Of a stretch of DNA of 64,000 nt, positions 2,617 through 64,000 are shown one piece after another. The position numbers and the translations under genes were made by a program. The stretch covers positions 1 to 64,000 of the forward strand of contig CAZCRK010000001.1 of assembly GCA_964501035.1 (NCBI GenBank). The letters run 5' to 3'. Position 1 is the stretch's first letter, and every line of letters starts with the position of its first letter. The notes beneath the pieces were generated by a model that did not search any database, had not been told where the DNA came from, and was given only the letters and a program-made list of their open reading frames with translations.

Positions 2617-3438
2617 ATGACAATATTATTTTTACTAATTATTATAATTTGTACAATTTTTTGGTTTTTTTTATCAAGCTGGAAACCACAAGCACACACC
2701 CTTTTTAAGAATAATAAACCAACGGTGTTTGGACACAGGGGGTGTCCAATCCGAAAAACTGAAAACACCCTCCCCTCGTTTAAAGAAGCACTTACTGCAG
2801 GAACAGATGGCATTGAGCTAGATATCCAATGGTCTAAAGATAAGCAACTAGTTGTGTTTCATGATTTTGACTTAACATCCTTAGGCCACCCAGAAAAGCT
2901 TGTTTCCTCGCTTACATATGAAGAAATCAAACAATTAAGCTCACAATTTTATGATAAACCCAGCACATATATTCCACTTTTACAAGAGGTTGTACAGATT
3001 TTACCCCAAAATCAAGTTATCAACATTGAAATTAAAACAAATCAGATTTTCTGTTCTGGGATTGAGCAAGAAGTTGCAAACCTTATAAAGAACTCAAACA
3101 TTGAAGCACAAACTTTAATTTCATCATTTAACCCTTTTGTTTTAAAAAAGATAAAACAAATTATTCCCAACGTAAAAACCGGACTTTTGTGGAGCAGGGA
3201 AGATCAAAGTTATTGGTTTCTGCCACGCCACTGGGCATATTTTTGTAAGCCAGATACATTTCACCCAGATATTGAATTTGTATCAGAAAAACAAGTAAAT
3301 TGGGCACATGAAAAAGGAATGTTGGTGTTTGCCTTTACTGTTAATTCGTCAGAACAAATTAATAAGGTCAAGTCCTATAACATTGATGGAATTTTTACAG
3401 ATGACCCCAAAACAATGAAGGAAAAACTAGTAGTATGA
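2617..3438 (+). CDS. Glycerophosphodiester phosphodiesterase with N-terminal membrane anchor
   Basis: GHRG, ENTL, GIELDI, VVFHD, NIEIK, GIFTD motifs; N-terminal TM helix. Confidence 0.9.
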   Translation: MTILFLLIIIICTIFWFFLSSWKPQAHTLFKNNKPTVFGHRGCPIRKTENTLPSFKEALTAGTDGIELDIQWSKDKQLVVFHDFDLTSLGHPEKLVSSLTYEEIKQLSSQFYDKPSTYIPLLQEVVQILPQNQVINIEIKTNQIFCSGIEQEVANLIKNSNIEAQTLISSFNPFVLKKIKQIIPNVKTGLLWSREDQSYWFLPRHWAYFCKPDTFHPDIEFVSEKQVNWAHEKGMLVFAFTVNSSEQINKVKSYNIDGIFTDDPKTMKEKLVV

Positions 3439-5150
3439 AATATTTTGTATTTATTGCATTGTTTATCTTTGGCTGCACCCACCAAACAACGAATGAACTT
3501 ACAAAAGATGATCTGATACATCATATTGGTTGGATGGCACATGATAAAATGGGTGGTCGATTAGCTGGTTCAAAAGAAGAGCTAAAAACAGCAGCGAAGA
3601 TATCAAAATATTTTGAGAGTGCTGGTTTAGAGCGTGTAAACCATTCATATCTACAGTCCTTTGAATTTTTAGTTGGAGGAAAGCCAAATGCTGATTTTAC
3701 ATTTTCTATTAATAATACAAATATTCAAGGTGTTGAGTTTTTGAGGTTTTCATCTTCAGGAAGCGTCGTTGGCAACGTAGTGTTTGCAGGTAATGGAGTT
3801 ACAGAACCGCAATATGATTTTGACGATTATAATTCACTCAAAACTGAAAACAATGTGGTGATATTATTAGCAGGCAACCCAAACGAGACCAATTGGCCAT
3901 TGCGAAAAAAAGCAATGAATGCACGCGAACATGGTGCTTCCGCCGTGTTGTTTGTGGCCGAAAAAGAACATTCTATTGATGCCTATGTTAACATAAAACA
4001 AAAAATGTTCGACAATGTAGGAATACCAACTGCAATTGCAAGCTTTGAAACTCTAAGAAATATTTTAAGTGAAAATCAAATTGACCTCTTATCCATTATT
4101 TTAAACATGAAAGAAAATCCACACAAAACACATGGCTTTGAAACGAATATTCAAGTTGAAATAAGTGTAACCATGGATTCAATAAAAAAAACATCGCATA
4201 ACGTTTTGGGAGAGTATTGTCCCCCCAACACTCTCAGCGATTCATATATTATTTTGGGAGCGCACATGGATCACCTTGGTTTTGGCGGCCCAGGAAGCGG
4301 GTCTTCAGCACCAAACATTCATGCTGTACACAATGGGGCAGATGATAATGCATCCGGAGTATCTGCAATGTTGGAAATTGTTGAATTCATAGGGCATACC
4401 CAACCGCCTCTTGATTGCAAACTTTTGTTTGTTGCTTTTGGTGCTGAAGAGCAGGGATTAATTGGATCGTCTTATTTAGCAGAAAACCTTCCGTTTGACA
4501 AAGATAATCTAAAAGCCATGATAAACATGGACATGATAGGTCGAATGGAAAACCAAACCCTGGTGTTGGGAGCTGTGGGTACAGCAATGGAGTGGAAGAC
4601 CATCATAGCAGAAATTACACCATATAATTTGAATATTGTTTTTGACGATGAAGGCTTTGGTGCAAGTGATCATCAATCTTTTATTTTAGAAGATATTCCC
4701 TCATTGTTTGTATTTACAGGTGCACATGAAGACTACCACAAGCCATCCGACGACATTGAAAAAATTAACCCTGACGGCTTATTGCAGGTTACTGAGTTTG
4801 TAAATGAACTGCTGTTCACTATATCTGCATCTGAGCAACCCATTACCTTTAAAAAAATCAACCCCCGCATGCAGAAGGGCAAAAGAAGTTCTGTAAAACT
4901 AGGCACGATACCAGATTATACCTATAATGGTGATGGCATGAGAATCAAAGGTGTTTCTTCTGATAGCCCTGCTGAACAAATTGGATTACAAAAAAATGAT
5001 GTTATTATTTCACTCGGTGGTGTTGAAATACATAGTATATATGATTATATGTTTGCCCTTCAAGGGGTTCAGGTTGGTGAAAAAACCAACATTGGCATTA
5101 TCCGAAATCATCAAAAATTTAATAAACAAATCACCCCAGCAAAAAAATAA
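3435..5150 (+). CDS. M28 family aminopeptidase lipoprotein with PA and C-terminal PDZ domains
   Basis: Lipobox IFGC; GAHMDH, NGADDNASG, GAEEQG, NMDMIG, SDHQSF, DYHKPSD; PDZ segment SPAEQIGLQKNDVI. Confidence 0.9.
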   Translation: MKYFVFIALFIFGCTHQTTNELTKDDLIHHIGWMAHDKMGGRLAGSKEELKTAAKISKYFESAGLERVNHSYLQSFEFLVGGKPNADFTFSINNTNIQGVEFLRFSSSGSVVGNVVFAGNGVTEPQYDFDDYNSLKTENNVVILLAGNPNETNWPLRKKAMNAREHGASAVLFVAEKEHSIDAYVNIKQKMFDNVGIPTAIASFETLRNILSENQIDLLSIILNMKENPHKTHGFETNIQVEISVTMDSIKKTSHNVLGEYCPPNTLSDSYIILGAHMDHLGFGGPGSGSSAPNIHAVHNGADDNASGVSAMLEIVEFIGHTQPPLDCKLLFVAFGAEEQGLIGSSYLAENLPFDKDNLKAMINMDMIGRMENQTLVLGAVGTAMEWKTIIAEITPYNLNIVFDDEGFGASDHQSFILEDIPSLFVFTGAHEDYHKPSDDIEKINPDGLLQVTEFVNELLFTISASEQPITFKKINPRMQKGKRSSVKLGTIPDYTYNGDGMRIKGVSSDSPAEQIGLQKNDVIISLGGVEIHSIYDYMFALQGVQVGEKTNIGIIRNHQKFNKQITPAKK

Positions 5151-59170: not shown

Positions 59171-63127
<3,957 letters not shown>

Positions 63128-63183
63128 AATCCGTGATGTTTCTCACAAAATTAATACAAATTCATAAATTTTTAATATTTTCC

Positions 63184-63212
63184 TTGTACAATTCACTAAG
63201 TCTTAATAAGTT
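63184..63212 (+). promoter_or_regulatory. Sigma70-type promoter TTGTAC-N17-TAAGTT
   Basis: 17-bp spacer; the predicted transcription start falls at or near the GTG of the leader ORF. Confidence 0.55.
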
Positions 63213-63220
63213 TTTACCCC

Positions 63221-63328
63221 GTGATTAATGAATATTCAAATCTAAAGGCAAATGATTTAACTGTGACAACTGACCATAGCTGTTGTTGTTGCTGTTCTAT
63301 GTTCGGAGGAGGAGACTTGCCCAGATAA
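63221..63328 (+). CDS. Cysteine-rich attenuator leader peptide (35 aa, five consecutive Cys)
   Basis: MINEYSNLKANDLTVTTDHSCCCCCSMFGGGDLPR*; TGT TGT TGT TGC TGT at 63281-63295. Confidence 0.75.
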   Translation: MINEYSNLKANDLTVTTDHSCCCCCSMFGGGDLPR

Positions 63329-63350
63329 AGGATTTGAATATTGATTATAT

Positions 63351-63388
63351 AACCCCTTTTGTCGGTAAGGCAAGAGGGGTTTTTTTTT
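63351..63388 (+). terminator. Attenuator terminator upstream of cysteine synthase
   Basis: AACCCCTTTTGTC-ggtaa-GGCAAGAGGGGTT followed by a T-run, 11 nt before the ATG. Confidence 0.85.
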
Positions 63389-63399
63389 AGAAAGAAAAA

Positions 63400-64000
63400 A
63401 TGAAAAGAAGTAATAATATATTAGATTTAATTGGAAACACACCACTTTTAGATATAAGTAATCTCTTTGACAGTGAGCAAACCAATATTTTTGCAAAAGC
63501 TGAGTGGGCAAATCCCGGAGGTTCTCTAAAAGACAGACCCGTTAAGCGCATGTTGTTAGAGGCAATTAAGGATGGAAATCTAACTAAAGATAAAACACTG
63601 ATTGACTCAAGTAGTGGAAATGCAGGCATTGCCTATTCAATGATCGGAAATGCACTAAGGTATAATGTAGAAATTGTTATCCCTGGAAATGCGAGTTTAG
63701 AACGAAAAAATCGAATGAAAGCACATGGAACAACCATTATTGAAACTGATCCAATTGAAGGCTATGATGAAGCGTTGCGTCATGTACATCAACTTGTGGA
63801 TGAGCACCCAGATAAATACTTTTTCTGTGATCAATATGCAAACGATAATAATTGGTTGGCACATTACCACACAACTGCTGAAGAAATAATTACTCAAGTT
63901 GGCGGTGAGATAAATTATTTTGTTGGGGGAGTAGGAACTGGAGGATCAATTACTGGAATTGGACGCAAACTGAAAGAAAAGTTTCCCAATATTAAAATTA
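63400..64000 (+). CDS. Cysteine synthase family protein (CysM/CysK-like), truncated by window end
   Basis: Manual translation: LDLIGNTPL, AKAEWANPGGSLKDR, DSSSGNAG, DQYAN, GVGTGGSITG. Confidence 0.92.
   Translation, partial: MKRSNNILDLIGNTPLLDISNLFDSEQTNIFAKAEWANPGGSLKDRPVKRMLLEAIKDGNLTKDKTLIDSSSGNAGIAYSMIGNALRYNVEIVIPGNASLERKNRMKAHGTTIIETDPIEGYDEALRHVHQLVDEHPDKYFFCDQYANDNNWLAHYHTTAEEIITQVGGEINYFVGGVGTGGSITGIGRKLKEKFPNIKI

Follow-up and report, generated by a model that had tools for sequence, protein, structure and literature searches.

This analysis concerns a leader locus that carries a run of cysteine codons and an intrinsic terminator, and lies directly upstream of a cysM-like cysteine synthase gene, close to the end of a 64,000-nucleotide stretch of DNA. 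This stretch, called the window here, comprises positions 1 to 64,000 of the forward strand of contig CAZCRK010000001.1 (C1:1-64000 in our numbering) of GenBank assembly GCA_964501035.1, which amounts to 1.87 Mb in 167 contigs, is 95.7% complete and has 33.8% G+C. The named relatives of the CysM of the window belong to metagenome-assembled genomes of Candidatus Neomarinimicrobiota (SAR406). A preliminary description of the locus, made from the sequence alone, had listed a promoter TTGTAC-N17-TAAGTT with a GTG codon 8 nucleotides (nt) later, a 35-codon open reading frame (ORF) with five Cys codons in a row, and a strong terminator followed by the ATG of a cysteine synthase; all of these were indeed found in place, as follows.

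63184-63189, + strand: −35-like box TTGTAC, read directly; a 17-nt spacer separates it from the −10-like box.
63207-63214, + strand: −10-like box, with TAAGTT at 63207-63212, read directly and conserved in relatives.
63221-63328, + strand: leader ORF of 35 codons with a GTG start, 8 nt downstream of the −10-like box, and a TAA stop; conserved in frame in relatives.
63281-63295, + strand: five consecutive Cys codons TGT TGT TGT TGC TGT, the proposed control codons, read directly.
63305-63314, + strand: G-tract GGAGGAGGAG, read directly.
63351-63388, + strand: intrinsic terminator, made of a stem-loop at 63351-63381 and nine T at 63380-63388.
63400-64000, + strand: 5' part of the cysM-like gene, with its ATG at 63400; the gene has 299 codons and ends at contig position 64299.

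Read from the GTG at 63221 (taken as M) to the stop codon TAA at 63326, the leader ORF yields the product MINEYSNLKANDLTVTTDHSCCCCCSMFGGGDLPR*. The stem-loop of the terminator has 13 pairs and a folding energy of −20.1 to −20.6 kcal/mol, and its U-run ends 12 nt before the cysM ATG; the 190-nt leader as a whole folded with a z-score of −3.69 relative to shuffled sequences. Both promoter hexamers match the sigma-70 consensus at 3 of 6 positions and were not listed by a consensus scan, and the support for the promoter therefore comes from its conservation in relatives. Two contigs labelled 'probably DNA', one of 111 nt (X2) that covers 63229-63312 and contains adapter letters and another of 250 nt (X1) that covers 63650-63899, were not used as evidence of expression, as neither is able to reveal a transcript start, a transcript end or expression.

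A short ORF of this kind could have arisen by chance in an A+T-rich spacer, beside a terminator that serves the upstream thioesterase gene, and the poor consensus matches of the promoter hexamers would agree with such an origin. However, the base composition predicts a mere 0.10 runs of five or more TGY (TGT or TGC) codons in the 1.87-Mb genome, both strands counted, versus three that were found, the other two of which sit in frames with no start codon. When the whole genome was scanned crudely for short ORFs that combine an amino-acid run with an adjacent terminator, the leader was the only run of at least four Cys, and one 'LCCCLF*' frame lacking a start codon was also returned. Crude scanning of the genome of the window gave no convincing Trp, His, Phe or other leader; two 'PRWWN' matches were rejected as leaders, one being a tRNA gene and the other lying inside a repeat protein.

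Conservation was examined in a family set of 42 genomes (Candidatus Neomarinimicrobiota), in which 14 loci have a cysM gene whose product is 75% or more identical to that of the window. The leader module was found upstream of cysM at 12 of these 14 loci, which belong to three genera, namely g1 (2 of 2 loci, the window counted), g4 (7 of 7) and g8 (3 of 3); it is missing from both loci of genus g9, where a different gene abuts cysM. The preliminary description had proposed to look for an in-frame TGY run in relatives, and the outcome favors its reading as an attenuator, in that all 12 loci have a run of 3-6 Cys codons in frame, with TGT and TGC interchanging, followed by the terminator and cysM. 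The peptides, of 30-35 residues, begin with [V/L/M]xx(x)[YF]S[ND] and continue with a variable part, Cys3-6, 2-3 residues, and GGGxLP[ARV]*. Three properties of the alignment argue that the leader ORF is translated: the first in-frame start codon occupies the same column at all 12 loci; the first Cys follows the start at a distance of 51, 54, 57 or 60 nt, again in frame in all 12; and the gaps within the ORF span 12, 9 and 3 columns, i.e., multiples of three, as opposed to 1-4 columns past the stop. The terminator, too, occurs at every one of the 12 loci (−15.5 to −20.1 kcal/mol, U-run of 7-9), at a distance from the cysM start that varies from 2 to 43 nt (12 nt in the window, 2 nt in g8). The leader module travels with cysM rather than with its upstream neighbor, which in g1 is a 4HBT thioesterase gene and in g4 and g8 a different ORF. 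Such in-frame conservation across three genera with different upstream genes makes a chance ORF extremely improbable. Close cysM orthologues of 74-78% identity lack the leader and have the end of another gene 130-150 nt upstream (L085 and L087, both of g9, and L004, L005, L104, L106, L108 and L110), and none of 16 more distant cysK/cysM paralogues (34-38% identity) has an ORF of this type.

The start of the leader is also conserved. A TTG occurs 36-38 nt upstream of the start codon in 12 of 12 loci, and a TAnnTT(T) ends 7-8 nt before it in all 12; because of this short distance, transcription probably starts at the GTG at 63221 or 1-2 nt before it, which would give a leaderless or nearly leaderless mRNA. 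Read as TAAGTTTT, the −10-like box also resembles TAnnTTTG, named as the Bacteroidota −7 motif in the relevant part of a published study (PMC9723704). Within the window, the only internal in-frame start is a GTG at 63263, which is absent from the sister species. Further upstream, at 63133-63148 and 87 nt before the leader start, lies a palindrome, cGTGA-N6-TCACA, which resembles a CRP/FNR-type operator. It is found at the same distance in both g1 loci and all three g8 loci but in none of the seven g4 loci, and TTGA-N6-TCACA variants occur upstream of the leaders of a separate group, clade X, described below. The whole genome has only 18 GTGA-N6-TCAC sites. The palindrome may be a protein operator that acts on the same promoter.

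Leaders with Cys runs were also found well beyond these 12 loci. A model of the leader, R1, matched 16 of the 42 family genomes (E ≤0.001) and 19 of 74 genomes of the order (E ≤1e-4), the weaker matches being other poly-Cys leaders with terminators; in the genome of the window itself, R1 matched at 63221-63386 only, and no second Cys leader was found. In seven family genomes (G002, G006, G010, G024, G025, G027 and G028), poly-Cys leaders precede an operon of an NIR_SIR sulfite reductase, an ORF of unknown function and a PAPS reductase; the Pfam identification of these genes rests on G002, and the G010 locus is cut by a contig end. The sister species G002 has tandem leaders here, MENKKTHTLVKFYNCCTCCCMKDTI and MNINNQIINCCCCCITGESF, each with a terminator (G002:C28:4010-4282; L184 611-883). 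The g9 genomes keep a poly-Cys leader before the sulfite-reductase operon, although their cysM loci have none. Three other families of the order also carry poly-Cys leaders, which precede the same cysM-JAB-ThiS/ThiF operon in G047 and G048, a cysM-like gene in G055, and, in G042 and G050, large ORFs that were judged by eye to resemble sulfite reductase. Among 80 metagenome loci, 12 with less than 120 nt of upstream sequence were dropped, and five of the 68 that were kept constitute clade X, in which the run is CCC, the peptide is different, and a segment GAGGGGUU mimics the 3' arm of the terminator. Lastly, eight of 71 cysM-like loci of reference genomes have an upstream ORF with at least three Cys in a row: one is that of the sister species, six come from five families of Bacteroidota, and one belongs to Chloroflexota. 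In each of the seven from outside the family, a terminator-like hairpin lies 52-95 nt past the stop codon.

The RNA structure of the leader was derived from single-sequence minimum free energy (MFE) folds of 12 leaders, an RNAalifold consensus, and pair counts on a model-based alignment. The pairs were counted on the 12 strong matches (alignment A4); a larger alignment of 53 matches (A3) was dropped from the counts, as most of its weak matches were terminators alone. In the coordinates of the window, the predicted elements upstream of the terminator are the following.

63226-63243, + strand: 5' arm of helix P1, at codons 2-8 of the ORF; one arm of a 17-nt inverted repeat that is 94% complementary.
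63330-63347, + strand: 3' arm of P1, directly past the stop codon and 3 nt before the terminator; supported by the inverted repeat, the folds and the pair counts.
63247-63251, + strand: 5' strand of helix P2, GGCAA, which pairs with UUGCC; 98.3% of cells are paired in the 12 sequences.
63317-63321, + strand: 3' strand of P2, TTGCC, within Leu-Pro codons; the middle P2 pair is C-G, U-G or U-A.
63259-63296, + strand: hairpin H1, formed by the Cys codons and ACAAC-type codons upstream of them; found by RNAalifold and in single folds, with 85.8% of cells paired.
63296-63331, + strand: irregular hairpin H2 of about −7.5 kcal/mol, with a 5' strand that starts right after the Cys run.

When folded without constraints, each of the 12 leaders had a helix of the P1 type in its MFE structure, and three pairs of this helix have changed on both sides. 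The terminator shows one compensatory pair, UA to CG, across the 12 loci. Taking all helices together, 87.9% of cells are paired, versus 40-56% when the partners are slid by 1-3 columns. The G-tract GGAGGAGGAG lies in the 5' strand of H2, while both the stop codon and the candidate antiterminator strand lie in its 3' strand; the tract, as GGAGGAGG, is invariant in 12 of 12 loci, synonymous positions included. The helices account for the conserved residues of the peptide other than Cys, YSN corresponding to P1, LP to P2 and GGG to the G-tract.

This last correspondence bears on the proposal that the ORF encodes a functional small Cys-rich peptide, either metal-binding or the precursor of a modified peptide, with the hairpin as its terminator. 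Conservation of the ORF and the presence of a gene for a ThiF-type enzyme nearby would be in keeping with such a peptide; nonetheless, the number of Cys varies from 3 to 6, the conserved non-Cys residues map to RNA helices, unrelated Cys-run peptides occur before other sulfur operons, and the neighboring genes are a known cysteine-synthase and sulfur-carrier set, so that we consider a functional peptide highly improbable. The conserved structure itself raises another alternative, namely that the leader acts as a structured RNA with a metabolite or a protein as its ligand, in the manner of a riboswitch or of protein-dependent attenuation, and that the Cys frame is incidental. P1 and P2 are indeed conserved, GGAGGAGG is invariant even at synonymous positions, and the conserved upstream palindrome hints at additional control by a protein. 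On the other hand, a scan of 62900-63600 against Rfam at E ≤10 returned eight matches, weak similarities to known leaders and terminators that were all under threshold, the best being L10_leader with 26.6 bits versus the required 44; none of the eight was used, those of His_leader (18 versus 49) and Phe_leader (16.6 versus 55) included. Moreover, insertions and deletions in multiples of three are confined to the frame, the frame is maintained despite a varying number of Cys codons, and the Cys run is the one feature common to leaders that are otherwise unrelated in sequence. Together, these properties make an incidental Cys frame very unlikely.

The preliminary description had proposed a transcriptional attenuation that senses Cys-tRNA, and this proposal is supported by the in-frame Cys run, by the conserved, nearly leaderless geometry, and by the occurrence of the same design on other sulfur operons. 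On the evidence of these sequences, the element is most probably a ribosome-mediated (leader-peptide) transcription attenuator that senses charged tRNA-Cys and controls the four-gene cysM-like operon. When Cys-tRNA is plentiful, a ribosome would run to the TAA at 63326 and come to lie on or next to the strand capable of pairing with the terminator's 5' arm, whereupon the terminator at 63351-63388 would form and transcription would stop 12 nt before cysM. RNA that is not translated would terminate as well, with the whole region upstream of the terminator locked up in P1, P2, H1 and H2. Under a shortage of Cys-tRNA, the ribosome would stall on the Cys codons at 63281-63295, and its leading edge would open H2, which begins right after the Cys run, a position that fits an anti-antiterminator role. 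The G-rich and stop-codon strand thus released (63305-63331) would pair with the CCCCUUUU arm of the terminator before the 3' arm has been made, and with the 5' arm of the terminator paired away, RNA polymerase would read through into cysM. What the sequences themselves show is the anatomy of the locus, its conservation, that the leader ORF is under coding constraint, and the association with cysteine and sulfur operons; in this scheme we infer the leaderless initiation, the stall, the identity of the antiterminator in the window, the opening of P1 and the dependence on cysteine.

A number of observations weigh against parts of this scheme, most of them concerning the switch in the window. There, the GGAGGAGG:CCCCUUUU duplex amounts to −7.1 kcal/mol versus about −20 kcal/mol for the terminator, and this value was matched by 43% of shuffled sequences and by 12.5% of 2000 random genomic segments; an alternative helix, AGAUAAAGG:CCCUUUUGU, reached −5.9 kcal/mol, and 21% of random genomic replacements of the upstream part gave an equal gain. 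Equilibrium folds in which a ribosome was masked at the second Cys, the last Cys or the stop codon kept the terminator in 12 sequences, and since it survives in all 12, folds of this kind cannot show a switch. Among 153,133 suboptimal structures, none within 9 kcal/mol of the optimum was free of the terminator. Covariation offers modest support for the helices, as 85 of 500 shuffles reached the observed six double-change pairs and the 12 sequences are closely related. With regard to initiation, the start codon is GTG in g1 and in three g4 loci, ATG in g8, and TTG in the other four of the seven g4 loci, an unusual leaderless start when placed at the 5' end; internal in-frame ATG, GTG or TTG codons are also present in g4 and g8, and because of these starts leaderless initiation is not the sole reading in these two genera. 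Finally, a gap of 38 nt separates the 5' arm of P1 from the first Cys codon, which puts the arm roughly 20 nt behind the footprint of a stalled ribosome, a placement that the classical model fails to account for, and P1 could therefore still form while a ribosome is stalled on the Cys codons, and block the antiterminator.

The antiterminator was also examined in the relatives, using folds in which the region up to the stalled ribosome was masked and the transcript was cut before the 3' arm of the terminator. In g8, GGAGGAGGUCCUUUACC paired with GGUAAAGAACCCCUUCC at −18 to −23 kcal/mol, as compared to −15.5 to −16.2 kcal/mol for the terminator, and this pairing was significant against shuffles (p 0.010-0.015), random segments (0.003-0.013) and replacements (0.000-0.010). 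In g4, GGAGGAGG:CCCCUUUU or UUUGCC:GGCAAA gave −10 to −17.6 kcal/mol in five of the seven leaders, and −7.0 to −7.8 kcal/mol in G005, with p values of 0.125-0.525 against shuffles and 0.03-0.09 in the random-segment tests. In g1, the genus of the window, the antiterminator was weak in these folds too. Beyond these genera, the shuffle p was at most 0.045 in clade X and 0.010-0.015 for the sulfite-reductase leaders of g9, and none of 200 shuffles matched the f3 cysM leader. A composite antiterminator made of CUUGCC:GGCAAG and AGAUAAAGG:CCCUUUUGU was rejected, as it reached just −3.8 to −4.6 kcal/mol. Of the antiterminator that the preliminary description had proposed, GGAGGAGGAG:CCCCTTTT, the G-tract is invariant in 12 of 12 loci and part of a significant pairing in g8, but the duplex is weak in the window, its −7.1 kcal/mol being equaled by controls. 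For the window, an antiterminator is suggested by comparison and not by its own energetics, and is the weakest link in the scheme.

The weak antiterminator of the window leads to a further alternative, in which the leader does sense Cys-tRNA but the output is translation initiation of cysM, RNA stability or Rho, with the hairpin serving either as a constitutive partial terminator or as a translational sequestor. In its favor, the mycobacterial poly-Cys ORF that was studied by experiment sequesters, in the relevant part of the report, a ribosome-binding site without termination (10.1101/834739), and in the window the A-rich stretch that precedes the cysM ATG is able to pair with the U-run (inverted repeat I7). 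Against this, a G+C-rich hairpin followed by 7-9 U is kept at each of the 12 loci and recurs in every other type of leader found, the terminator-to-cysM distance of 2-43 nt does not suit a fixed sequestering geometry, and the antiterminator pairing is significant in g8, in clade X and in the g9 sulfite-reductase leaders. An output other than transcription attenuation is accordingly improbable in our judgment.

Within the attenuation scheme, P1, the strongest of the conserved helices, requires separate consideration, as it is mutually exclusive with every candidate antiterminator, the reason being that its 3' arm lies inside the antiterminator loop or overlaps it. A P1-like layout recurs in leaders that are unrelated in sequence: in clade X, nucleotides 1-13, start codon included, pair with a strand past the Cys run, and in the three sulfite-reductase leaders that were folded, a helix closes between the 5' part of the ORF and the region past the stop codon. 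The start-to-first-Cys distance in clade X is 48-51 nt, and the 5' arm of P1 lies about one ribosome length behind the footprint. It is possible that P1 is opened by a second ribosome, initiating or queued, or by steric hindrance from the stalled ribosome, or that it serves to close the start codon after the first round of translation. A more specific version, in which the attenuator reads the ribosome queue, such that a second ribosome, initiating or collided, is needed to keep P1 open, is on present evidence rather unlikely. If true, it would constitute a disome-dependent transcription attenuator that integrates the initiation rate with the supply of Cys-tRNA, and that closes its own start once P1 forms.

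The operon downstream of the leader consists of four tightly packed genes, cysM-like / JAB / ThiS-ThiF-rhodanese / DUF4395. The first encodes a PALP-family cysteine synthase of 299 amino acids that scored best against the cysM and cysK models, under the cut-offs of both, and its closest solved relatives are cysteine synthases. The second encodes a Prok-JAB/MPN protein of 145 amino acids, and the third a 469-residue fusion of ThiS, ThiF/MoeB and rhodanese domains. The fourth, which lies outside the window (contig C1 66108-66626) and shares its first 40 nt with the end of the ThiF-fusion gene, encodes a hydrophobic DUF4395 protein of 172 amino acids (Pfam E = 4.7e-33). We take this gene set to be that of the sulfur-carrier (CysO-thiocarboxylate) route to cysteine of Mycobacterium tuberculosis (mec-cysO-cysM with moeZ). 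Searches of the assembly, which is 95.7% complete, by tblastn with the G002 protein and with PF01077 gave neither an NIR_SIR sulfite reductase nor the leader-bearing operon of the relatives, and no cysE scored above the curated cut-off; if both are truly absent, the organism cannot reduce sulfate, and its CysM may use a substrate other than O-acetylserine. Next to those of Neomarinimicrobiota, Gammaproteobacteria (Photobacterium, Amphritea and Hahella) have the closest CysM relatives, with 61-63% identity, which hints at gene exchange among marine bacteria. The gene that follows the operon, outside the window, encodes a protein of 1247 amino acids (L002 3825-7568), whose C-terminus, judged by eye, resembles a type IX secretion sorting domain. 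Elsewhere in the assembly, contig C37 has an 87-codon Cys-rich open frame at about 3400-3660 on the + strand (…CCATCC…KCCCCSCCSDTCC…).

Classical leader-peptide attenuators, such as trpL, hisL, leuL, thrL and pheL of E. coli and Salmonella, combine tandem codons for the end product with a terminator and alternative pairings. These attenuators of amino-acid operons are summarized in the introduction of the mycobacterial report (10.1101/834739). The SAR406 leader shares with them a short ORF with tandem product codons, a terminator before the first gene, termination by default of RNA that is not translated, and alternative pairings around the 5' arm of the terminator, the last two as predicted from the folds. 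It differs in that the amino acid sensed would be cysteine, that the start is apparently at the 5' end of the mRNA with no Shine-Dalgarno sequence, that the 5' arm of the closing helix P1 is placed at codons 2-8, 38 nt upstream of the control codons, and that the antiterminator in the window is weak.

For cysteine itself, the searched literature offered three cases: one mycobacterial and translational, a group of Actinobacteria candidates with no terminator, and one prediction for cysS of Rhodobacterales. In mycobacteria, polycysteine leaderless small ORFs (Ms5788A / Rv0815A) were shown by reporters and proteomics to release attenuation in response to cysteine (Canestrari et al. 2020; 10.1101/834739), and the authors stated there that attenuation for cysteine mediated by an upstream ORF was previously undescribed; Ms5788 is characterized in that text as 'small (159 AA) and hydrophobic'. 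According to the relevant passages of that report, a short ORF with a GTG start and a Cys run precedes sulfur and cysteine genes, as in the present case, and is leaderless, which here is suggested by the promoter spacing; the mycobacterial Cys tract, however, pairs with the Shine-Dalgarno sequence of the next gene and acts at the level of translation, with no intrinsic terminator. In the SAR406 leader, by contrast, the Cys codons pair upstream, in H1, a strong terminator separates the small ORF from cysM, the peptides are dissimilar, and the phylum is a different one. The uORFC-8-2 motif of cysS in Rhodobacterales, a prediction of a ribosome-mediated attenuator (Brewer et al. 2021; PMC8632094), resembles our leader in its tandem Cys codons and in its terminator stem followed by a U-run. 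As described in the pertinent part of that paper, it has two Cys codons, at positions 14-15, precedes the gene of cysteinyl-tRNA synthetase in Alphaproteobacteria, and is not leaderless; it differs from ours in gene, in lineage and in where the Cys run is placed, and the leader does not belong to that motif. Candidate Cys leader peptides upstream of cys and cbs operons were also proposed in Actinobacteria (Seliverstov et al. 2005; PMC1262725); they too are short ORFs with a run of Cys codons near the stop, for which the relevant section of the paper reports no terminator hairpins and proposes Rho-dependence, whereas a terminator is present here. A flavobacterial transcriptome paper mentions leader-peptide attenuation before amino-acid operons, and its relevant passage does not name cysteine. 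In agreement with the preliminary description, which knew of no such attenuator in this lineage, no Cys leader peptide of Marinimicrobia, Bacteroidota or Chloroflexota was found in the full-text literature that was searched.

Seen next to these systems, the leaders of uncultured marine Neomarinimicrobiota (SAR406) indicate a terminator-based and probably leaderless Cys attenuator on both a cysteine-synthase / sulfur-carrier operon and a sulfite-reductase/PAPS-reductase operon, and the same design in Bacteroidota and Chloroflexota. The poly-Cys leader would thus be a marker, readable from sequence only, for cysteine-regulated genes in uncultured lineages, the DUF4395 gene included, and the placement of its closing helix raises a specific question on leaderless translation and ribosome queuing. 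The leader of the window is very probably a leader-peptide attenuator that senses Cys-tRNA, and it represents a new form of a known type: in contrast to the translational type of mycobacteria it is based on a terminator, and it is probably leaderless and has an oddly placed closing helix.

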